Shown here piece after piece: positions 1 through 26,797 of a DNA stretch of 64,000 nt. The DNA lies in NCBI GenBank assembly GCA_051599415.1, contig AP039699.1, positions 1 through 64,000 of the forward strand, in the 5' to 3' direction. The stretch's first letter is position 1. Each line of letters opens with the position of its first letter. The notes under the pieces were generated by a model. It was not told the origin of the DNA, did no database searches, and worked only from the letters and a program-made list of their open reading frames with translations. The stretch is from Savitreella phatthalungensis (lineage: Eukaryota). A program made the position numbers and the translations under genes.

Positions 1-65
1 TTACTTCGTTCAGTTACGTATTGCTAAGGTTAAGACTACTTTCTGCCTTTGCGAGAACAGCACCT
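1..65 (+). other. Untrimmed Oxford Nanopore ligation adapter plus native barcode 06 (artefact, not genomic)
   Basis: 2-25 TACTTCGTTCAGTTACGTATTGCT is the ONT adapter top strand. 26-33 AAGGTTAA and 58-65 CAGCACCT are the native-barcode flanks. 34-57 GACTACTTTCTGCCTTTGCGAGAA is NB06. Confidence 0.97.
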
Positions 66-129
66 AACCCTAACCCTAACCCTAACCCTAACCCTAACCC
101 TAACCCTAACCCTAACCCTAACCCTAACC

Positions 130-170
<41 letters not shown>

Positions 171-174
171 CCCT
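66..174 (-). repeat. Telomere (TTAGGG)n, C-strand on +
   Basis: 18 AACCCT units with one extra A at ~150, at the contig end in left-telomere orientation. Confidence 0.98.
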
Positions 175-2130
175 TGCTCTGCTTTGCTCGCTTCCTTGCT
201 CACTCACTCGCTTGCTAACCTTGTTTCTCTGCTCATGCCTGCTGCCTCGCTACACTACACTTGTCCGCATGCATACGCGCCTGCTGGTCTTCAACATCAT
301 CATCATCTTGCTGTCTCCTTGCTGCCTCTTTCTGCTGCTCCTCTCTCTGCTGTACTCCTGCCCTCAATCCCTCATCTGTCTGACACTCTTCCTCCTGTTT
401 ACCTGAAACATCCCATGCCATTTGCTCCCCACATTCCTTCTCCCAAAAACCCTGCCATCTGTTTCATCTGCAACTGCACCGTCACCTGCCAAATACTGTT
501 ACCCGTATGATACCTGCCTTACGCTGTTACCTGCATGTCACCTGCCACACGCTGCTGCCTGCATGTTGCCTGTCAAATGCCGTTATCTGCACTGCCACCT
601 GTCAAACATGTTTACCTGCTACGCTCCTGCTGGTCCTCAACATCATCACCTTGCTACCTCCTGGCTGCCCCCTGGCTGCCCCTTTGCTGCTTCGCTCCCT
701 GCTGTGCTCCTGCTCTCACTCCTGCTGCTGTTGCTTACTTTGTCACTCCATGTCACTTCACTCTCCTTGACCCATACACTGCTCATCCTACTCACTTCTA
801 TCACCCTCATCTATTTGACATTCTTCTCCATTTACCCAACACACCCCATGCAAAATCACTCCACATTCTTATTGTTAATTGCCTCCCCATCTGTTTCATC
901 TGCAACTGCACCGTCACCTGCTAAATGCTGTTACCTGCATGTCACCTGCTAAATCCTGCTACCTGAACTGCCACCTGTCAAATGCCGTTACCCGCACTGC
1001 CACTTGTCAAACACTGTTACCCGCCCTGCCGCCTGGCAAATGCCACTACCTGCCAAAACGCCTGTCAACTGTCAAATCCACTCATCAATCCCATTACCTG
1101 CCCTGTCATCCCGTCAAATGCTGTTGCTGCCCTGTCTCTGTCAAATGTCATTACCTGCCTGGTCTCCTTCAAATGCTGTTATCTGCACCGTTGTCTGCCA
1201 TGTGCTGTTGCCTGCACCATCATCTTGTCACCTGGTCTTATCTGCACTGTCACTTATGTCATCATCTCTCAAACACCGTTACCTGCGCTACTACTTGCCT
1301 CATTGCCCTGCTCTGTGGCCTGGCATTTGTCAAACCCTGGATCGGCCAATTGCTGTTGACCTGTCAACCCCTGTTGTGTATCACACACTTGTTGCCCGCA
1401 CTGTACCTTGTTTCATTACTGCACTGCCATTGGCTGAATGATGTCATCTGTTCAAACTGTGCTGTCACTGGATGCGTCATTGCTGCACTGTCACTTGTCA
1501 CTGTCATTTGTCACCTGGCCCTGCCACTGACTCTGTCTCTGCTTGTTATAAACACCACCTGCTTGGCCCTGGCCCTATCCTGTTGCCTGCATTCTCATTC
1601 CTCTGTCTGTAATTGGCACTGGCGCCTGTTGTGCAACATCAATTAAGTGCAATTGATTGCAATGTCACATGGCATGCACTGTTTCCTCCACTGTTGCTTG
1701 TCCAATCCATTGCTTGCACTGCGCTGTGCCCTTTATGCCACAACTGACTTCAGTTCACTCTCACTTGCTCCAATTGCCTGTCTTGTGCGCTGTCACCTGT
1801 ACTTGCCACTGTCATGCACTGTAATCTGTCAACTACATTGTGACTGTGCCTGTCTGTGCTTTCTCTCTAGCTTGTTTGATCTCCCTGTCTACTTTTGATT
1901 GACTGTGATCACTGTCATCTATCTCCTGTTCTCCACACCCATTCCACACCATTTCATTTGTTGTCAATGCATGCCAGTCTATGCCATATAGATGTGCACT
2001 GCTTAATTGATCCATTTTATTCCTATCTTATCTCCTATCTCATCTTATCTCTGCCTCCATGTGTGCGCAACATCACATCATTTTCTCATTCTGTCAACTT
2101 TAATTGGCCATATCTTCTGATCCAGATGTC
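175..2130. repeat. Telomere-associated low-complexity, CpG-depleted repeat region with a 28-29 bp minisatellite and an internal duplication
   Basis: Degenerate unit TCACCTGYCAAATGCTGTTACCTGCA(C)TG is tandem at ~482-620 and ~914-1200. 455-489 is identical to 887-921. CTGCTGGTCYTCAACATCATCA occurs at 281 and 627. Confidence 0.85.
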
Positions 2131-2147
2131 AGATGATCATGAGACTA

Positions 2148-2292
2148 GTCTCATCATGAAGCGATTGATCAACTCTATAAAAAGTATTTCGATATGTACA
2201 ACGGTTTTTCATCTATATACTGAGCTTGTCTCATCATGACGCCATTGATTGACTCTATAAAAAACATTTTCACATGTACAATGGTTTTTCAT
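2148..2292. repeat. Direct repeat, 2 copies, 80-bp period
   Basis: GTCTCATCATGA...CTCTATAAAAA...ATGTACAAYGGTTTTTCAT at 2148-2212 and 2228-2292. A perfect palindrome ATGAGACTAGTCTCAT lies at 2139-2154. Confidence 0.9.
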
Positions 2293-2643
2293 TGTCTGAA
2301 TTAGACTGGGTTTATATACTGTGCCTGCCACATGCTCACAATGCAAGGCCCTTGGTCTTGTGGCACAGTGGTCTGGCCCCCACTGAGCTACTGAGTCACA
2401 AGCTCTGTGCATGGAGGGTAGATGCAGGTCTGGCAGAACTTGAACTTTGAGTTTGAGTTCTTGGGTCCAAATCCTGCTTGGAGCAACAATTAACTGCCAA
2501 TAAGCTCTAGGCAGTCAGGGAGCAAGAGCGCTCTCAGGGGCTTTCCCTCCATGCATGAGGTCAGAACATTTCTCTGAGTGTTCTGATACAGGGGGTTTTG
2601 CCAAATTTTTTCATGATTCAGGCACAGAGAGATGAACACAGCA

Positions 2644-2721
2644 AATGCAGAGAATACAGCGGAATGCAGGGGATGCAGGGGATGCAGGGGATGCAGGGAA
2701 TGTAGGGAATGCAGAGAATGC
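2644..2721. repeat. 9-bp tandem repeat (GGGATGCAG and variants)
   Basis: GGGATGCAG x3 flanked by GGAATGCAG, GGAATGTAG and AGAATGCA variants. Confidence 0.85.
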
Positions 2722-2882
2722 AATTTGGTTTTTGCAATTTGGTTTTTACAGTTTGGTTTACAGTTTGGTTTTGCAGTTTGGTTTTGCAGTTTGGTTCACG
2801 GCTGCACTTAGGTTTTACAGTTTGGTTTTACAGTTTGGTTTTTACAGTTTGGTTTTACAGTTTGGTTCTACAGTTTGGTTCG
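2722..2882. repeat. ~13-bp tandem array TTTGGTTTT(A/G)CAG
   Basis: About a dozen units with variable T-run length. Confidence 0.9.
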
Positions 2883-3000
2883 TCCCTAACTGTTGACTTA
2901 CAGTTAGGGTTGCCATGCAGTGTTTCATCCCTAACTTCATGGCTATAATCTGGCGCTGCTGGAAACAGTTTGGGATTTTTGAACGGAATATATATATAGA

Positions 3001-3403
3001 GTAATTGCAGAAGTGACAGCGTTGTGTACAAATCATACACAATCGACCCGGGCCACGGAGTGGTTGCGACACATGGGTCAGCAACGCTGCTTAGACCAAC
3101 CTCTGTCATGGTCCTTCTGTGTCTGTTTGTATTTGTTTGTGTCTGTTTATGCTTGTTTGTGTCCCTTGTTGGACTTCTGTTTGGAACCTCCTGTGCTGTC
3201 TGGTTTGAGTCCATGTTGCTTTGTCCGTCGCTCTTAGGTCCTACAATCGTCTTCCGCGACACAAATCACCGCTGACACCTAGCACAGATTCATGGGTATC
3301 GGATGTTACGACTGCTCAAGTTATCTGAGACTCCCTGTGATGTCTGATCCGTGTCCGGATTGCTTCGTCCGCCGCTCACGGGTTCTGCGGCTGTCCAGTG
3401 ACA
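3001..3403. mobile_element. Degenerate LTR fragments of the same family as 4801-5314
   Basis: 3001-3071 is the reverse complement of 4801-4871 (LTR 5' end). 3075-3310 aligns with the 3' half, ~5055-5314 (CGGATGTTACG vs CGGATGTGACA). 3330-3400 is a further partial copy (TGCTTCGTCCGCCGCTCACGGGTTCTGCGG). Confidence 0.7.
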
Positions 3404-4454
3404 ATGTGATAGACAGTGTACTTGTTGTCTCAGCATGCTGTCAATGTTGCGGCAGCAAAGCAGAACAACGTGTAGCATTCACAGGTGCCTTTCTCAAGGA
3501 CAAAGCTTTCTGTGGCGGAATTCTATGTTTCAGTACAAGTAAGTAAGACTGTGAAAAATAGACATGCATTATGCAATGTTGTATGATATAGCCGAAGATC
3601 TTGGGCGAGACGTAATCATTTCATAGAGCCTCGGTCGTTTGTGCTCCCAAAGTCATGCACTGAAGGCTATCTCATGCTTTCAGCTTGCCGCGCCTAGTTC
3701 AGAGATGGTAATGTGTCGGAAAAGGTCATACACCCGTTGCTCAATTGTTAATACTTTGACGAGTGTACACATGCCAAAACTGCGCAGCTGCGATGCAGTC
3801 CTTGCCTTGTACTTTCAGCCTGTACATCGATGTATGCTCGCGTGTGCGGTCCGATGAGCTGATCACTAAATGTGGGCGATAAATCCATTTTGTTGTCGAA
3901 TTTGCACGCGCAAGTAGTCAAGCCGCCTGACCTTTGGCGCATAATTTCAGTGACCTGAATGATAATGGATCCGCTGAATAGCTCACTTCTGACAAGGTAT
4001 TAACTGTTCTTGCCGGGATGTGCATTCTGTTCTCAGACACCACGATCCTGTGAAGTCAAGATGCTGCATGTTTGGACGTCAGCACCCTTCTGCCACAGCG
4101 CATGCAAGATCTTTCATGAGATATTGCTCAAGCTATCGCCTCCATCGGGCATGCTTAGTCGATTGGCAGAAATGCCATTTATTGAACGCCCGAAATGCTT
4201 TTGATAAGACTTCTACTTATCTGGACTGACCATGAGAGTACAGGTCCCATAGATGCAAATCATGGCAGGACATCTACTCCCTCAAAGGAGCGGGAGTGTT
4301 TCGTTGCTTCGAAACGTGCAGCCTGTCAATGGTTCTTCCTGTCGCAACTGTCTGCCGTTGAAACACAGCGCAGGGGAGCACACTTTGGAAGGACAATTTG
4401 GCCTGAAGATGCGTTTTGTCTTATCTCGATTGCATTCGACAAATAAGGCAGTTA

Positions 4455-4800
4455 CTGCGGAGTACTGGTGCAAGAGTCGGAAACCACGGACAAATAACGC
4501 AGACACGAGCCAGACGATTCAAAAGGACTCACATGGAGCTGGCAAAAAGCACATACAAACACAAACAGACATAAATCCACATAAACATCTACAAAGAGAC
4601 ACAAGGAGGACTGCAAGAGACCAGGTCAAGTCAGTGTCCTGACCTGTGCGGATGCTAGGCTGACGCATGCCTCAACTCTGCTGTCATAGCAGATTGCGTT
4701 GTGGACCTTAGGTATAAGAGCACGCAGCACGCTGCATACGAATCACATGCAAGTTACTGGTGGACTAAGCTCAGAACAATTCCATTTGAGAGCTCCACAC
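4455..4800 (-). mobile_element. Older inverted LTR copy interrupted at 4800
   Basis: Its reverse complement aligns with 4901-5220 (GTGTGGAGCTCTCAAATGGAATTGTTCTG vs GTATGGAGGTGTCAAAGAGTATTGTTCTG; shared CAGCGTGCTGCGT; shared GTCTGGCTCGTGTC). A probable remainder lies at ~5349-5383. Confidence 0.7.
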
Positions 4801-5314
4801 TGTCACAACCACTCTGTGGGCCGGGTCAATTGTATATGATTTGTACACAACGCCATCACTTCCGCAATCACTTGGTTTATGTATGACAAGATAGCAGCCC
4901 CGTATGGAGGTGTCAAAGAGTATTGTTCTGTGCTAGGTCCTGATCTTTGTGATATCTGGCCCACTGTCTCCATACAGCGTGCTGCGTCCTCTGGTACCCT
5001 ACCAACCTGCCACGTCAGCAGAGTCGTGGTATGTTTCAGTTATAGCATGGTTGGCGTCACTGCCTAGACCGTCTCGTAGCCCCTCTGTGTCTGTTTGTGC
5101 TTGTTTGTATCTCTTAGTGTTCTTCGGTGGGCTCCGTCTGTGTTCTCCTGTGTGGTCTGGCTCGTGTCCGTGTCGCTTCGTCCGTCGCTCTCGGGTCCTG
5201 CGGCCGTCCTCCGCAACACACACCGGGTCGCAATCTTGTCATTTGTGTACCGAGTAATTGTTGTAGTGACGGTGTCGTCTTCAAGCAGCTCGTACAGATA
5301 GTCCGGATGTGACA
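4801..5314 (+). mobile_element. Solo LTR (Ty3/gypsy-type termini), 514 bp
   Basis: Termini TGTCACAACC...GGATGTGACA match at 9/10 as an inverted repeat. Several diverged copies lie nearby. No PBS/PPT or coding region and no clean TSD. Strand is arbitrary. Confidence 0.7.
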
Positions 5315-5906
5315 AGCTCCCCAGAGTCACAATCCTTCAGATGCAGCGCCAAGTGATTCGGGATTGATGGCACCGTGCACAAGTGTGTAGGAATGGTACG
5401 GACAATTCAATGAGTCGTGACAGACAATCACAAGGGACGTAAGGCAGGCAAAATCAAACGATGGGCAGTTCGAGGGGAGTGTCGCACCTCAGAGCATTCT
5501 CAGTTCTGCGAAGAAGCCATAAGACAAGGTCTATACAATAAGACCCACGTTCAGAAGGATGGCCGCTCCAGTTACACTCGTATACGCTGTGCATGCCTCG
5601 ATGTGAAGGGAAGTGCCTGATGTGGCGCAGATCATGGCATGTCGACCTGCTGTGAGGCACGGCAATCCTGACATAGCCAGCCAGCCAGCCCGTGGAGCAA
5701 CATACAGCTCAAAGCACTGCTTGATCGTTGCGTAAGCAAGAGAAGGTACATTAATGAGCACTGTGAGCACTACATCATCACGTGCGAGGGGACCGGAGCC
5801 GGAGTGGCGTTTCGCATTAGCCAGTCTACTGCTCGTACACAACGGGTGCTGAGCCTATGTGAGGCAGCTTCAGATCGCATTTTCAGCACCCAGAGGACCG
5901 TATCGC

Positions 5907-7553
5907 TTACATGATGCTGCATTGGCTCCGGAACCACCAGTGATTCTGCAGTCTTCGGAGCCAATGGAGGACGATGGCCAGTCGAATTTTTACGCTGCGA
6001 GCCTTCAGCATTAGATATTTCTCTTCCTCGTCAACAGGAATGACGCTTGCAACCCAGAACGCAAATACGCTGGGGTCACTCGGAACCAGACCGTGGGTCA
6101 TTTCAAGTCGCTGAAGCATCCATGGCGCAGAACCATTGCGCAGCGTGTCAACAAATGAAGAAGCCTCATTGAGAAGTTCTTGAGTTGTCTTATCAAGGTC
6201 AGTCTCGGACAAATCGAATCCGAGCTCACTCGCGGACAGCAGACTGCTGGCCTGTTCTTCTTCTGAGTCACCATCGATACCGTCATCGGGAAGAAGCTCA
6301 CAGTGGCCCATGATGTAACCGTCGACAATGCCCCATCGCAACAGCTTGAACCTGTCCTCACCCGTGGTCTCAATCAGACTACGGCCGTCGTCCAAATACT
6401 GTACGCTGTTGATGCGGAGCACCGTTCCGTACTGCGCGACCGGACAATCCTGCTGTTCTGAGGCGCGCGCGCCGGGACTGCCCATCTTTGGCAGACACAT
6501 GCCAAATCTCCGATCACTTTGCATGCAACGGCGAATCATGAGCCGATAGCGCGGCTCGAATATATGCAAGAAGGTGGGCATGTAGGGAAATGCCAGTGAG
6601 CAAACGAAAATTGGTATCGTCAACCCGGGACCGAGTCTTTCCTCCTCCGAGATGCCGAAAAGCGCGCGCGGAGAGCTTTCAGTCGCTTCAATATCCGCCT
6701 TACGCTCAGCCCATAGAAGCGGCCAAAAATTCAGCATAAGCGAGGTAACGATACCGCTGCGTGGAGCGTGATAGAGGTTCGCAAATGGTGGCGGAACAGT
6801 GGCTCTGCATGTGGGGCAGGTCGGCGTGTGATCGACCGAGCGTAATAGGCAGGTCCGACAAAAAGTGTGGCCACACGGCGTTGTGAGCGGGTCGTAGAGG
6901 CTACCATAGCAGATCTGACATTCGAGTTCCGCAAGCACTGAAGGAAGCACAGTGCTCGGAATCGACGCCGTATCGGAGGGCAAGTGGAAGGTGTGATTTG
7001 CAAGCGTCGGTACCTCCTTCAACCCATCAAGCACCTCTTTAATGTCGAATGCGGCTGCCGGTGTTTTCTGTCTTTTGAGCTGCAGTAGTGCGCTAATCAG
7101 CGATAAGAACTCTTGGCCACGCTGCACTGAATCGATCTGACCAGCCCAGGTCTGCTGCTCCTGGCGTAGTACGTTCCAGATTTTTGCGAGCACAACGTCG
7201 TGGGCAATGTGCGTCCAGTGTCGTCCTTTCGCACAGTCGAAAGGACACGATCGCATCTCGCCTACGATCCCCTGATCAGCCCAACAATCGTCGCAAAGCG
7301 AATTGCCACAGGGCAAGGTTCGCGCGCTCTCAAGGGGCCGACCACAGAGCGGACATGTCAGGAGGCCTAGTAGCACTGTTGCAGTCGAATGCCTCTTATC
7401 ACTGATGCGCACCGGAGTGTTCCCGCCGGGGACCCGAGAAACCGACGAAGCGGACGAATTGCCCGCTGTCCCATGCACTCCCGGAGTTTGCGGATCTTGC
7501 TCGTCGCCAAGCGCAGCATCTAGCCACGCGCTCTTTGCATTGCGCAAATCCAT
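5907..7553 (-). CDS. RING finger / LON N-terminal domain protein (LONRF/CrgA-like E3 ligase) with C-terminal CaaX
   Basis: Two RING-type motifs (CPLC..CGNSLCDDC..CPFDC; CQIC..CGHTFCRTC..CPTC), a LON domain (FPYMPTFLHIFEPRYRLMIRRC) and a CSIM end. First ATG is 7553; the frame stays open upstream. Confidence 0.9.
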   Translation of the reverse strand: MDLRNAKSAWLDAALGDEQDPQTPGVHGTAGNSSASSVSRVPGGNTPVRISDKRHSTATVLLGLLTCPLCGRPLESARTLPCGNSLCDDCWADQGIVGEMRSCPFDCAKGRHWTHIAHDVVLAKIWNVLRQEQQTWAGQIDSVQRGQEFLSLISALLQLKRQKTPAAAFDIKEVLDGLKEVPTLANHTFHLPSDTASIPSTVLPSVLAELECQICYGSLYDPLTTPCGHTFCRTCLLRSVDHTPTCPTCRATVPPPFANLYHAPRSGIVTSLMLNFWPLLWAERKADIEATESSPRALFGISEEERLGPGLTIPIFVCSLAFPYMPTFLHIFEPRYRLMIRRCMQSDRRFGMCLPKMGSPGARASEQQDCPVAQYGTVLRINSVQYLDDGRSLIETTGEDRFKLLRWGIVDGYIMGHCELLPDDGIDGDSEEEQASSLLSASELGFDLSETDLDKTTQELLNEASSFVDTLRNGSAPWMLQRLEMTHGLVPSDPSVFAFWVASVIPVDEEEKYLMLKARSVKIRLAIVLHWLRRLQNHWWFRSQCSIM

Positions 7554-8701
7554 ATGCCTGTTTTGCCGCGGTGTAGCCTGACGTTTGCAATTTGGCGCGG
7601 CAGTCACTGCACCAAGCAGCTTTCGAGGACACCCTTTTGCACAACCTACGGACCCTCCTTTGAATATCGTGCCTACAGAGGCCCCTTAGCGCTAGCGCTG
7701 CTTATGATTCCTCTTCTCTTGGGCTGGAGATCTGCTTACTTTTGTGTTCTCCGAATCATTCGTGATGAATTCATGCACGTAATCCGGAAGTTCAACCGTT
7801 TCCAGCTTGTCAATGCAAAATCTGGCCAATGAAATGACGTCGTACGTAAACATCCTTAGGTGATTTCGTCCTGTGACGGCATGAGTCAGTTTCAGATGAT
7901 GCACATAAGAGATCGAAGAATTGGCAATATCTTTATTGGAGACTTCTTGGTGACAGCGACATGATGTACGCCCAAGCGTTTGTGTGACCTGGTGTTTCCG
8001 GTCAGTACTGACAAAGCATCCGTGAATGACACGCCTTACACTGGCTCGCCCTGCTGCGTCCAGCCTGTCAAGTGCCTTGTATCTGAATGAATGACCTCAC
8101 AGACCTTGCAGCAGTAGCGACTCCGGAGACGGCAGATTTAGCGACGAGAGTAGGAACTGCGAAGACAACGCCTGTCTCTCGTGCTTATGAATCGCTATGC
8201 TATTCAGACAGACATGATTAGACACATATTGCGGCAGGAACCTATCTGCGCCATAGTCACTGTCGAGGAAAACCAGGCATGATCGCTCGCACAGACTCTC
8301 TTGTGTAGAGGGTGGCTTATAGTAACGACATGTTGGGGAAACAAGTATCTCAGTCTCAAATGATGGTGTTTGCCAGCGCTTCATGATTTCTGAGCAGCCG
8401 TGTCGAAAGCACAGCCTGCAATACAAAGCTGACAGCCTTAACTCTGGCAACTCGTGACAGAAGGGCCCTGGATGGACGGAGTCGCACGACTGTCGCCCAA
8501 CAACGCGCACACGAGCAATGTTGAGCTGCTTTGCGATGAGCCTCTCGTGATTTGACCAAGCCGATGAGCTGAACAAGGAAAGGGCATCATCGCATTAAGA
8601 GCATATTTAGACGCAATAACTTTCATAGTCGGCTGTCCCGATAGAAAAGTTGGAGACAAAAAACGCGCCTCTACGATGCGGCAAGAAATTGAGACGACGC
8701 T

Positions 8702-10495
8702 ATGCCTTCTCGCGACGTCTCTACCAACGCAAATTATTCGTCATGGCGGACGCGGCACACCGTACTGGATTGCACAATAGATTTTGTGCAACAATGTTTG
8801 ATCGGCAAGGTGGGTTTGACGGTAGACAAGGTTGGAAGCGAGGCAACCGACGAGCTGGTGCTCGACACATCATTCCTGAATATCGATCGTGTCGATGTCG
8901 ACGGCAATCCTGTCTCATACGAAGTTCGACAGAGAAAGGAGCCTCTCGGCAGCCCTCTTGTGATCCGGTTACCTGCAGATGCCGCCGGAAGCATCGCAAT
9001 AACCATTCACTACTCCACGACCGCGCGCTGCACAGCGCTACAATGGCTTGACCCACCGTACGTCTTCAGTCAGTGCCAGGCGATTCATGCACGATCGATG
9101 TTTCCATGTCAAGATACACCATCGGTCAAGTCAACATATGAAATGAAGCTGCGCAGCCCCTTCCCCGTTGTAGCCACGGGCAATGCTCGTGGTGCGCTTG
9201 ATTTTCACAATGGCGCCCTAATGTACGTCTTCGATCAACCGGTGCCCATTCCGTCCTATCTCTGCGCCATAGCCTCAGGTGACCTGGCTGCTGCACAGAT
9301 CGGCCCGCGATCGACTGTCTATCGTGAGCCACGCTTCATTCATGAGACACAGATGGAAATGGCGCCTGTTGTCGAGAACTTTATCGCCGTTGCTGAATCG
9401 TTTCTGCCAGCATATGCATGGACGTCCTACAATGTCCTTATCCTACCACAGAGCTTCCCTTACGGAGGTATGGAGAACCCGCAAATAACGTTCGCGACTC
9501 CTACTATCCTCTCCGGCGACGGCTCGAACTTGGACGTGATTATCCACGAGCTAGCACATAGTTGGTCCGGAAATCTTGTCACAGCGGCTAGTTGGGCACA
9601 TTTCTATCTGAACGAAGGGTGGACCGTGTGGCTAGAGCGTAAGATCCTCGAAAAGCTTCACGGGCGAGCAGTTGCACAGTTCAGCGCACTCATCGGGTGG
9701 CGCGCGCTTGAGGAGTCCGTTGCCAATTTTGGGCCCGAGCACGAATTCACCAAGCTTCTGCCAGATCTCGACGGGCAGGACCCGGACGATGCCTTCAGCA
9801 GCGTGCCGTACGAGAAGGGCTTCAATTTGCTGTACGAAATCGAGAACCTCGTTGGGTCGGCAAAGTTCGAGCCATTCGTCTACTCGTGGTTCTCCACCTT
9901 TGCAGGAAACTCCGTGACCACAGATGATCTGCAGACCCACCTCAGCACATTCTTCGCCGCCGATGCCGACGCTACGGAACAGCTGCAAAAAGTAGACTGG
10001 CAGATGTGGCTGCACGCTCCCGGGCTGCCGAAGAAGCCAGACTTTGATCTTAGCCTTGCGCAGCCGTGCTACGCTCTGGCTGATGCATGGTGTTCGCATT
10101 CAACGACAGAAGATTTCAATGCTGACGACATTGCGGAATTCGACGGATCCCAGCGCGTGCTATTCCTTGAAACGTTGACGAAAAATCCCAGTCCGCTGTT
10201 CGACGATGACCGCGTCCAGAAGCTTGACGAGATCTACAATCTGACCTCATCGCGCAACGCAGAGGTTCTGCACCGATTCCTCCTACTGGCGCTCCGCCTC
10301 CGAGCGAGGCCGTTTTATGAACGTACAGCAGACTTTCTCGGTACCGTCGGTCGCATGAAATATGTGCGTACATTGTTCCGCGAGCTCAACGTCTGCGACG
10401 CTGAATTCGCAAAGGCGACTTTCAACACGATCAAAAGTCGTCTCCATCCAATTTGTAGGACGATGGTGGCACGCGATCTCGGCATCCAAACATAG
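8702..10495 (+). CDS. LAP2: Leukotriene A4 hydrolase / M1 leucyl aminopeptidase
   Basis: FSQCQAIHARS, YGGMEN, HELAH..NEG and AFSSVPYEKG motifs. Confidence 0.95.
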   Translation: MPSRDVSTNANYSSWRTRHTVLDCTIDFVQQCLIGKVGLTVDKVGSEATDELVLDTSFLNIDRVDVDGNPVSYEVRQRKEPLGSPLVIRLPADAAGSIAITIHYSTTARCTALQWLDPPYVFSQCQAIHARSMFPCQDTPSVKSTYEMKLRSPFPVVATGNARGALDFHNGALMYVFDQPVPIPSYLCAIASGDLAAAQIGPRSTVYREPRFIHETQMEMAPVVENFIAVAESFLPAYAWTSYNVLILPQSFPYGGMENPQITFATPTILSGDGSNLDVIIHELAHSWSGNLVTAASWAHFYLNEGWTVWLERKILEKLHGRAVAQFSALIGWRALEESVANFGPEHEFTKLLPDLDGQDPDDAFSSVPYEKGFNLLYEIENLVGSAKFEPFVYSWFSTFAGNSVTTDDLQTHLSTFFAADADATEQLQKVDWQMWLHAPGLPKKPDFDLSLAQPCYALADAWCSHSTTEDFNADDIAEFDGSQRVLFLETLTKNPSPLFDDDRVQKLDEIYNLTSSRNAEVLHRFLLLALRLRARPFYERTADFLGTVGRMKYVRTLFRELNVCDAEFAKATFNTIKSRLHPICRTMVARDLGIQT

Positions 10496-25252: not shown

Positions 25253-26797
25253 ATGGAACGCAAGTCAAGTATGTCGGTTCTTCTCGTATGTTCACTAGCG
25301 ACAGTCTTTGCACGGACGCAAGAAGTCTTCACGGAGATGGATTGTCCGGATTACCAGGATCATTCGACCCGCATTCATAATCCATTGAGCAGAGGGCCCA
25401 TAGGTCTGCCGTTTCAGCGCCCTTCAGTAGCATGTCGGACCTTTCGGTCTGAGGGCGTCGAGCGATTGATCGAACACACGAAATCCCGAATCAGAGACCC
25501 TGACTTGGCACGATTATTCGAGAACTGCTTTCCCAACACGCTAGATACGACGGTCCGATGGCATGACGACGCCTTGCCGGAGACGTTTGTCATCACAGGC
25601 GATATCAATGCTATGTGGCTACGCGATTCGACCTTCCAACTAGAAGGATATCATGACATCAGCAGTACAGACATGCCTTTGGCGAGACTTATTGCGGGCG
25701 TCGTACAGACACAGGCCAAGTTTCTCTTGCAGAACCCTTACTGTAATGCCTTTCAGCCGCCGCGTGCCTCAGGACTGAAACCAGTCGGCAACAATTTTCG
25801 CGATACAGTCGAGCCGGCGTATGATCCCGACGTGGTGTTCGAATGCAAATATGAGATCGATTCGATCGCCTCCTTCTTACATATTTCATGGCGCCACTGG
25901 CAGGCAACCGCAGATATCAAGATGTTCACTCCCGTATGGATAGAAGCCGTGGAAGCTGTGATGCGCGTCATTAGCGAGCAGTCGCAGCCTTCATTTGATG
26001 TTCGGACAGGCAAGTATCAGCCAAATAAGTATACTTGGCGACGTCAGACGGATTCCGCCACTGAAACGCTTGCACTCGATGGCAGTGGCTTTCCCGTTGC
26101 AGCGAACACATCGCTGGTACGCTCGGCTTTCCGTCCATCAGACGACGCATCCGTGTTACAGTTCCTGATTCCTGCGAACGCTTTTCTTGCAGTCGAGCTC
26201 GACCATCTGTCTAATATCCTCGAGACTGCACAGACATTGGGAATCAATGGCGCGTCAAAATGGGTAGTAAAGGCTCTGGAAATCAGCAAATCATTGCATG
26301 ATGGTATAAACAAGCACGGAGTGGTCGAGCATGCTGAATTTGGACGCGTGTTCGCCTATGAGGTCGACGGCTTTGGATCGAGACTGCATATGGATGATGC
26401 GAACACGCCAAGCTTACTAGGCCTGCCTCTTTTGGGATTCGTCAATCGCGATGACGTCCTGTACAAAAATACTCGGCGATTGGTCCTGAGCAAGAATGGA
26501 AATCCCTGGTTCGTGCGGGGCGCCGAGCTTGAGGGAGTCGGGTCTCCGCACACGCCACCAGACAATGTATGGCCCATGTCAATCATCGTGCGCATCATGA
26601 CCAGCGACGACGAGATCGAGATCAGAAAGAATCTCGACGTGTTGGTGCGTACAACTGGCAACTTAGGCCTGATGCATGAATCCATCAATGCATGGAATCC
26701 TGGCATTTATACACGGCCCTGGTTCGCTTGGGCAAATGCCCTCTTTGGTCAGATGATCGTCGACCTACTCGATCGCTTCCCTCAAGTTCTTTCTTGA
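25253..26797 (+). CDS. GH125 exo-alpha-1,6-mannosidase (DUF1237, Mug157-like)
   Basis: FENCFPNTLDTT, ITGDINAMWLRDS, KYEIDS, FRPSDD, MDDAN and TRPWFAWAN motifs, with a signal-like N-terminus. Confidence 0.93.
   Translation: MERKSSMSVLLVCSLATVFARTQEVFTEMDCPDYQDHSTRIHNPLSRGPIGLPFQRPSVACRTFRSEGVERLIEHTKSRIRDPDLARLFENCFPNTLDTTVRWHDDALPETFVITGDINAMWLRDSTFQLEGYHDISSTDMPLARLIAGVVQTQAKFLLQNPYCNAFQPPRASGLKPVGNNFRDTVEPAYDPDVVFECKYEIDSIASFLHISWRHWQATADIKMFTPVWIEAVEAVMRVISEQSQPSFDVRTGKYQPNKYTWRRQTDSATETLALDGSGFPVAANTSLVRSAFRPSDDASVLQFLIPANAFLAVELDHLSNILETAQTLGINGASKWVVKALEISKSLHDGINKHGVVEHAEFGRVFAYEVDGFGSRLHMDDANTPSLLGLPLLGFVNRDDVLYKNTRRLVLSKNGNPWFVRGAELEGVGSPHTPPDNVWPMSIIVRIMTSDDEIEIRKNLDVLVRTTGNLGLMHESINAWNPGIYTRPWFAWANALFGQMIVDLLDRFPQVLS

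Follow-up and report, generated by a model that had tools for sequence, protein, structure and literature searches.

Repeat-induced point mutation (RIP), as known from Neurospora, changes C to T in repeated DNA by way of a cytosine-methyltransferase homologue. It targets CpA, and its AT-rich product with raised TpA is recognised by a TpA/ApT ratio above about 0.89 and a (CpA+TpG)/(ApC+GpT) ratio below about 1.03. The Taphrinomycotina are, to our knowledge, usually taken to be without DNA methylation, after the examples of fission yeast and Pneumocystis. Here we describe a chromosome end of Savitreella phatthalungensis (assembly GCA_051599415.1, contig AP039699.1, positions 1 to 64,000 of the forward strand; this whole stretch of 64,000 nucleotides (nt) is referred to as the window), in which about three quarters of the CG dinucleotides are gone from the 2.8 kb that adjoin the telomere and none have been lost in the neighbouring genes. 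The CpG-poor block at 175-2954 appears to be a known kind of pattern, a CpG-decay domain, in a lineage for which it had not been described before.

Several described systems resemble this block in part. In Cryptococcus neoformans, Dnmt5 is reported to methylate centromeric and subtelomeric repeats strictly at CG and genes are unmethylated (bioRxiv 10.1101/149385). The block would share with this system a regional CG pattern that takes in the subtelomere, methylation being read in the block from CpG loss alone; it is unlike the Dnmt5 system of C. neoformans in being satellite-like and not transposon-rich. A C-to-T bias at CpG in repeats, ascribed to methylation followed by deamination, is reported for Tuber melanosporum, Microbotryum, Puccinia and Melampsora, and Taphrinomycotina are not among the taxa with CpG-signature repeat mutation described in that work (PMC4352252). 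The preferred target in Pucciniomycotina is given as TCG in a further study (PMC3318451). Tuber and the Pucciniomycotina have the loss of CpG from repeated DNA in common with the block, in which TCG is, by composition, the most depleted context, whereas dispersed transposable elements are affected genome-wide there and the loss is telomere-adjacent here, with a repeat 2 kb away unaffected. The chromosome ends of Encephalitozoon are described as running from telomere through telomere-associated repeats to subtelomere, with shifts in nucleotide bias that coincide with 5-methylcytosine (5mC) in long reads (PMC10158259). The window has the same order and a strong shift in nucleotide bias. In contrast, the hypermethylated loci of this microsporidian are its rRNA genes, and no methyltransferase is reported to have been found there (PMC10158259).

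The block is unlike the product of Neurospora RIP, as the preliminary description of this DNA, made from the sequence alone, had already implied. In 175-2900, TpA/ApT was 0.55 and (CpA+TpG)/(ApC+GpT) was 1.71, both on the non-RIP side and close to the values of 0.52 and 1.32 in gene space, and CpA and TpG are in excess. The GC content of 42-51% (first kilobase 0.51, second 0.49, third 0.42) does not correspond to an AT-rich RIP product.

A sharply bounded CpG-poor domain beside the telomere

Between positions 175 and 2900, 38 CG were observed, whereas shuffling of the mononucleotides yielded 144.7 ± 9.1 (z −11.7), and none of 5000 shuffles was as low. The observed/expected ratio (o/e) of CpG was 0.26 for this interval as a whole and 0.08-0.48 in its 500-nt windows, and each of its sub-blocks was depleted on its own in the shuffle test. 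The ratio was 0.78 in 2901-5900. Past 5.9 kb, in the gene space, it reached 1.11, and not one of 576 windows of 500 nt fell below 0.56 there. In this gene space, DNA covered by open reading frames (ORFs) had a CpG o/e of 1.12 and non-ORF DNA one of 1.02 (17 segments, 11.6 kb). A likelihood change point was placed at about 2954, where the probability of G after C changes from 0.047 on the telomere side to 0.267 on the inner side, and a weak second step was found near 6382. The CpG-poor domain is real and sharply bounded, and it reaches about 230 nt further inward than position 2720, at which the preliminary description had ended it. Sliding CpG o/e and change point otherwise bear out what had been proposed there, namely a bounded domain next to the telomere that has lost CpG and gained TpG and CpA, in the neighbourhood of CpG-rich genes. 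The counts on which that proposal drew were also recovered: 1441-2100 holds 5 CG in 660 nt (four in the context GCGC, one in GCGT) together with 91 TG and 64 CA, and the richness in CG and TCGA from 5.9 kb onward is reflected in TCGA being the commonest CpG tetranucleotide there (464 occurrences).

In the depleted domain, TpG (o/e 1.7-2.0) and CpA (1.5-1.65) were in excess and GpC (1.27-1.42) was not depleted. The block therefore has the composition signature of 5mC-driven CpG decay, in which CpG is low, TpG and CpA are high and GpC is normal. CpG loss of this type is what DNA methylation usually leaves behind; it may point to methylation, but is no proof of it. The depletion was equally strong outside the tandem arrays (o/e 0.21 over 1823 nt, vs 0.33 over 953 nt inside them) and is therefore not a side effect of the repeat structure. 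It was deepest at 2293-2643 (o/e 0.05), where the sequence is non-tandem, its base composition is balanced and only one CG occurs; 2301-2640 within this stretch contains 33 TG and 33 CA. Across 2101-2640, AG, GA and GG occur at normal levels and the CpG depletion is equally deep.

The block adjoins the terminal telomere repeat, with the (CCCTAA) array occupying 63-174 and the block beginning at 175. No tRNA was detected in 1-6500, nor any Rfam match at E-values up to 1 in the same interval. None of the 20 ORFs of at least 75 amino acids (aa) from 2212-5911 reached the Pfam cut-off; the open frames of 34-2027 are stop-poor sequence of low complexity. Judged by its sequence, the block is non-coding telomere-associated DNA of a satellite-like and not a transposon-rich kind, and the earlier designation of the process as a defence was not upheld for repeat DNA of this type. 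A transposon or gene relic within the block was considered and rejected, as there was no tRNA or Rfam match in 1-6500 and no Pfam match in 2212-5911. The tRNA and Rfam searches did not confirm the resemblance of 2440-2490 to a tRNA.

CG methylation and deamination as the favoured explanation

We favour, with moderate confidence, the explanation that subtelomeric chromatin is, or once was, methylated at cytosines in CG context and that subsequent deamination depleted 175-2954 of CG. The CG cytosines from 175 to about 2954 would be, or would have been, methylated as part of subtelomeric silent chromatin, and the deamination of 5mC to thymine would convert CG to TG on one strand and to CA on the other strand, until over evolutionary time about a quarter of the expected CG was left. 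The gene space from about 5.9 kb would be unmethylated and would have kept its CG, and the 3 kb in between would be mildly affected. This explanation is favoured because of the composition of the block, its sharp edge, the mild depletion of the next 3 kb and the loss of CG in copy A but not in copy C of a roughly 400-nt repeat. Copy A (2988-3400, plus strand) is the copy nearest to the CpG-poor block, whereas copy C (4885-5290, plus strand) is CpG-rich with an o/e of 0.8-0.94, as found in alignments and, for the latter, in sliding windows. Methylation would be aimed by chromosome-end chromatin and not by repetitiveness: the repeat at 4800-5400 is CpG-normal, and position at the chromosome end therefore fits better than repetitiveness.

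Differences between copies were counted for repeats within the window, with six pairs used for the transition/transversion ratio (Ts/Tv) and the sequence contexts and seven pairs for a mirror control. The individual differences quoted in the preliminary description are present in the alignments (GATCAACTC/GATTGACTC and ACAACGG/ACAATGG, as well as GTGACAGCG/GTGATGGCG, AATCGA/AATTGA and CACGGA/CACAGA). The fraction of C sites at which the partner copy has T was 0.22 for CG, 0.14 for CA, 0.115 for CT and 0.15 for CC. Expressed as counts, 37 of 168 CG sites and 116 of 857 other C sites differed between copies (0.22 vs 0.135; odds ratio (OR) 1.8, p 0.006). Over the compared parts, copy A has 7 CG vs 17 in copy C. 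By majority of the three copies, derived C>T changes at CpG number 5 in copy A (with 9 ancestral CpG), 2 in copy B, the inverted third copy, and 0 in copy C. Double differences of the type CA<->TG occurred six times vs one AC<->GT (p 0.125). In addition, 40 of 485 entries of differences from other copies place 36 differences within 175-2950, of which 5 hit a CpG of the window (p 0.003), CpG bases making up 2.7% of the block.

The sequence context of the remaining CG was compared with both strands pooled. In the block, the share of C followed by G was 0.083 for GC, 0.062 for CC, 0.054 for AC and 0.030 for TC (chi-square p 0.028), and the corresponding share in gene space was 0.26-0.32. The retention of GCG compared to TCG (0.083 vs 0.030, p 0.003 uncorrected) describes composition only and is not a polarised mutation spectrum. 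The sparing of GCGY that had been suggested earlier is therefore weakly supported: GCG is retained most with the strands pooled, but CCG ranks first on the plus strand alone. Similarly, the G-CG-Y pattern holds for 1441-2100 but not for 175-1440, where only 2 of 25 CG are GCG. The pyrimidine after CG is found because nearly every G in 175-2100 precedes C or T.

The protein of the glycoside hydrolase family GH125 encoded at 25253-26797 of the window has its best match in Taphrina deformans (59% identity) and shows 50-54% identity to proteins of Schizosaccharomyces, Protomyces and Saitoella. These identities indicate a yeast of the Taphrinomycotina without a close named relative among the matches, in agreement with the early-diverging ascomycete suspected in the preliminary description. 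For T. deformans, earlier work reports homologues of DIM-2 and RID without detectable RIP (PMC7882544) and a genome with TTAGGG telomeres and no RIP (PMC3648899). According to a third work, the species encodes UHRF1, DNMT4, a CDCA7-like reader of hemimethylated CG with a chromo domain, and HELLS, and is an exception among species that otherwise have DNMT1 or DNMT5 (bioRxiv 10.1101/2023.01.30.526367). By analogy with T. deformans, the lineage plausibly has the tools for methylation. A literature search, supplementary tables aside, returned no 5mC measurement and no report of CpG-poor subtelomeres for Taphrina or its relatives. It may be speculated that CG methylation is confined to the 2.8-kb chromosome-end block and is brought about by an enzyme of the RID/DNMT4 class together with UHRF1, a CDCA7-like reader and HELLS, the unusual set reported for Taphrina, in the absence of DNMT1 and DNMT5. 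We regard this specific arrangement as quite improbable; if true, it would be the first maintenance-type role for RID/DNMT4-class enzymes.

The Taphrina branch retains genes related to methyltransferases, and a sharply bounded CpG-decay domain next to a telomere would show at which place methylation should be sought in it. Were methylation found, CG methylation specific to chromosome ends could be studied in a compact yeast system. If there is no methylation, a strong dinucleotide and strand bias would need another mutational or selective cause.

Several results weigh against methylation and deamination as the origin of the depletion. The in-window copies differ by 155 transitions and 94 transversions, and this Ts/Tv of 1.65 is an ordinary ratio. 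In the mirror control, CG<->TG/CA columns were variable in 30 and conserved in 19 cases and GC<->GT/AC columns were variable in 29 and conserved in 37, which amounts to an about two-fold CpG excess that is not significant (OR 2.0, p 0.09). When changes were polarised and pooled over the three copies of the 400-nt repeat, 7 of 27 CpG were affected vs 20 of 171 sites in other contexts (p 0.065). A CpG o/e of 0.26 at equilibrium would require a rate excess far larger than two-fold. The hypermutation between repeat copies that had been proposed earlier is thus weakly supported. Furthermore, in the degenerate 28-nt units, whose G-bearing columns alternate between TG, CG and CA in favour of CpG decay, TG dominates CA, so that much of the TG may predate amplification. 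In 175-2100, CTG occurs 136 times (four times the expectation) vs 2 CAG, and in 175-1440 AG is missing and GA and GG are scarce beside CG, a strand asymmetry that symmetric CpG decay cannot produce. Finally, the kinship to T. deformans is only distant (59% in GH125), and its gene set may therefore not apply.

Alternative explanations

The strand asymmetry of 175-2100 leads to the first alternative, in which the block is a strand-asymmetric low-complexity satellite that excludes CG in the same way as AG, GA, GG and CAG, without methylation. Its word content would then be set by its origin or by constraint, for example because it consists of arrays of words to which proteins bind or because the chromosome end requires a certain structure. 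We consider this possible, although rather unlikely. Besides the CTG excess, it is the extent of the asymmetry that speaks for such an intrinsic composition. C and T make up 67% of 175-2100, which contains 30 CG, 243 TG and 177 CA; T stands before 243 of the 297 G, and single purines make up 426 of the 513 purine runs. In 175-1440 (1266 nt), there is no AG at all, next to 9 GA, 12 GG and 25 CG, and 152 of 189 G follow T. The organisation in 28-29-nt units with a higher-order duplication and the dominance of TG over CA in the unit columns are likewise in line with this explanation. On the other hand, CpG is equally depleted in the balanced part at 2101-2640 and outside the tandem arrays, and the alternation of CG, TG and CA in G-bearing columns is what CpG decay predicts. 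The copies are moreover 20-30% diverged, enough for random change to have made AG, yet CG and AG were not re-created, which calls for an ongoing bias. As the asymmetry ends near 2100-2300 and the CpG depletion runs to 2954, the two are overlapping but distinct features.

If the improbable arrangement with a RID/DNMT4-class enzyme outlined above did exist, the CTG-rich, AG-free asymmetry of 175-2100 could have been left by a step of that end-specific process which acts with a strand bias. Strand-specific deamination linked to replication or resection was rejected as a cause of the asymmetry, since it predicts an A-rich plus strand and A accounts for 17%. An open frame of 255 aa at 879-1646 lies in the low-complexity block and is not a gene candidate; it is open because stop-forming words are nearly absent (TAG 2, AG-poor).

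The remaining alternatives depend on the occurrence of the block in other data. Contigs of four public runs were compared with positions 1-9000 (741 records for run X1 and 295 for run X2). X1 and X2 are two runs of the same sample and possibly the source data of the assembly, whereas X3 and X5 stem from two other studies. Contig depth was not taken as copy number or expression. Contigs of X1 matched 3115-4869 and 4994-9000 without any difference and, within the block, 963-1120 (158 nt, 1 difference) and 585-859 (275 nt, 6 differences and 11 gap letters). A contig of X2 matched 695-1125 with 4 differences. Pieces at 90-97% identity were present in X3 (1127-1328 with 6 differences) and in X5, a phyllosphere metagenome (1303-1427 with 7 differences and 2871-2996 with 4). 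The sequence family of the block exists outside this assembly, and near-identical pieces in runs of the same sample and in two other studies make an assembly artefact unlikely. Up to 13 distinct contigs of X1 and up to 9 of X2 differed from the window at one position of the block, and at position 4895 a single run had as many as 17 variant contigs. So many variant contigs at one place indicate that both the block and the repeat at 4800-5400 are multi-variant, multi-copy families. Transitions made up about 70% of the contig differences in the four runs (178/248, 175/254, 184/259 and 66/93).

This multi-copy state is central to the second alternative, a repeat-triggered premeiotic process of the RIP type or the type of methylation induced premeiotically (MIP), which would have a CpG preference and use an enzyme of the RID/DNMT4 class. 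The number of variants of the block and the proportion of transitions among them would suit such a process. It would also have counterparts in the CpG-signature repeat mutation of Tuber, Microbotryum, Puccinia and Melampsora as described above (PMC4352252, PMC3318451), including TCG, the target in Pucciniomycotina, as the most depleted context, and T. deformans has a RID/DNMT4 homologue according to two works (PMC7882544, bioRxiv 10.1101/2023.01.30.526367). Repeat-triggered action, which the preliminary description had also put forward, nevertheless fits less well in view of the 4800-5400 repeat, which is likewise multi-variant and keeps its CpG. Furthermore, the in-window Ts/Tv is low, the classical RIP indices are negative, and earlier work reports no RIP in Taphrinomycotina genomes, although their tests were aimed at RIP of the CpA type (PMC7882544, PMC3648899). 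Taken as a source of the CpG loss, a process acting on the multi-copy state is improbable. It is very improbable that the terminal kilobases were mis-called (for example through methylated CG being taken for TG or CA) or the contig end poorly polished: an adapter-like leader is still attached to the untrimmed end, and the contig pieces given above do not match the block letter for letter, but X1 and X2, even if both may be the assembly's own data, match pieces of it almost exactly, and X3 and X5, from two other studies, carry further pieces at the identities stated.

Arrangement of the chromosome end and neighbouring genes

The first 60 positions of the window form a leader without genomic origin, which looks like an Oxford Nanopore adapter and barcode flanks that were not removed from the contig end; its three CG (positions 7, 17 and 52) were read in the sequence and are not genomic. 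The telomere repeat follows at 63-174 on the plus strand with 18.5 units of CCCTAA (Tandem Repeats Finder (TRF), period 6, 98% matches). A single unit near 148-154 reads CCCTAAA, which may be a true variant of the repeat or else an error in the homopolymer.

The telomere-associated sequence block as a whole (175-2954), defined by the change point and found in multi-variant contigs, begins with the pyrimidine-rich, CTG-rich and CpG-poor part at 175-2100, oriented on the plus strand by its C+T content and dinucleotide counts. Within it lie a higher-order duplication of roughly 350-430 nt (274-606 vs 620-1040, plus strand, 74-78% identity) and, inside this, the degenerate 28-29-nt tandem units at about 481-1215 (plus strand). 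An 80-nt tandem repeat at 2140-2292 (plus strand, TRF) has 1.9 copies that are 83% alike and differ by CA/TG and CG/TG changes. The non-tandem stretch at 2293-2643 separates it from two short-period arrays detected by tandem-repeat search on the plus strand, a 9-nt repeat AATGCAGGG with 8.7 copies (2644-2722) and a 13-nt repeat TTTGGTTTTACAG with 11.5 copies (2724-2880). A short inverted repeat at 2883-2908, where the CpG-poor block ends inward, has the telomere-like hexamers CCCTAA and TTAGGG in its arms. Proteins that recognise telomere repeats might bind to it as an internal site. A scan of metagenome contigs with the 26 nt of the inverted repeat gave no exact match, and a scan of metagenome contigs with a degenerate two-part motif of the 28-nt units, which matches three copies in the window, revealed no further copies of the block.

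Word depths on 3115-4478 and 5189-9000 were 85 and 62 in X1 and 4-8 and 666 in X2, from which no conclusion was drawn. Pieces of the genes and of the block were also present in the phyllosphere metagenome and in sequencing data of a second organism.

Further inward, copy B of the roughly 400-nt repeat lies inverted at 4480-4884 on the minus strand, as found by alignment and by the inverted pairs I1 and I4-I8. Together, copies B and C form a palindrome with its centre near 4885. The first gene of the CpG-normal space, at 5907-7607 on the minus strand, encodes a protein with a RING finger (RING families) and a LON substrate-binding domain (Pfam PF02190, 7e-33). It is followed by genes for a leukotriene-A4 hydrolase, an acetyl-CoA carboxylase, a PPR protein, the GH125 protein and others, all in long ORFs on both strands.

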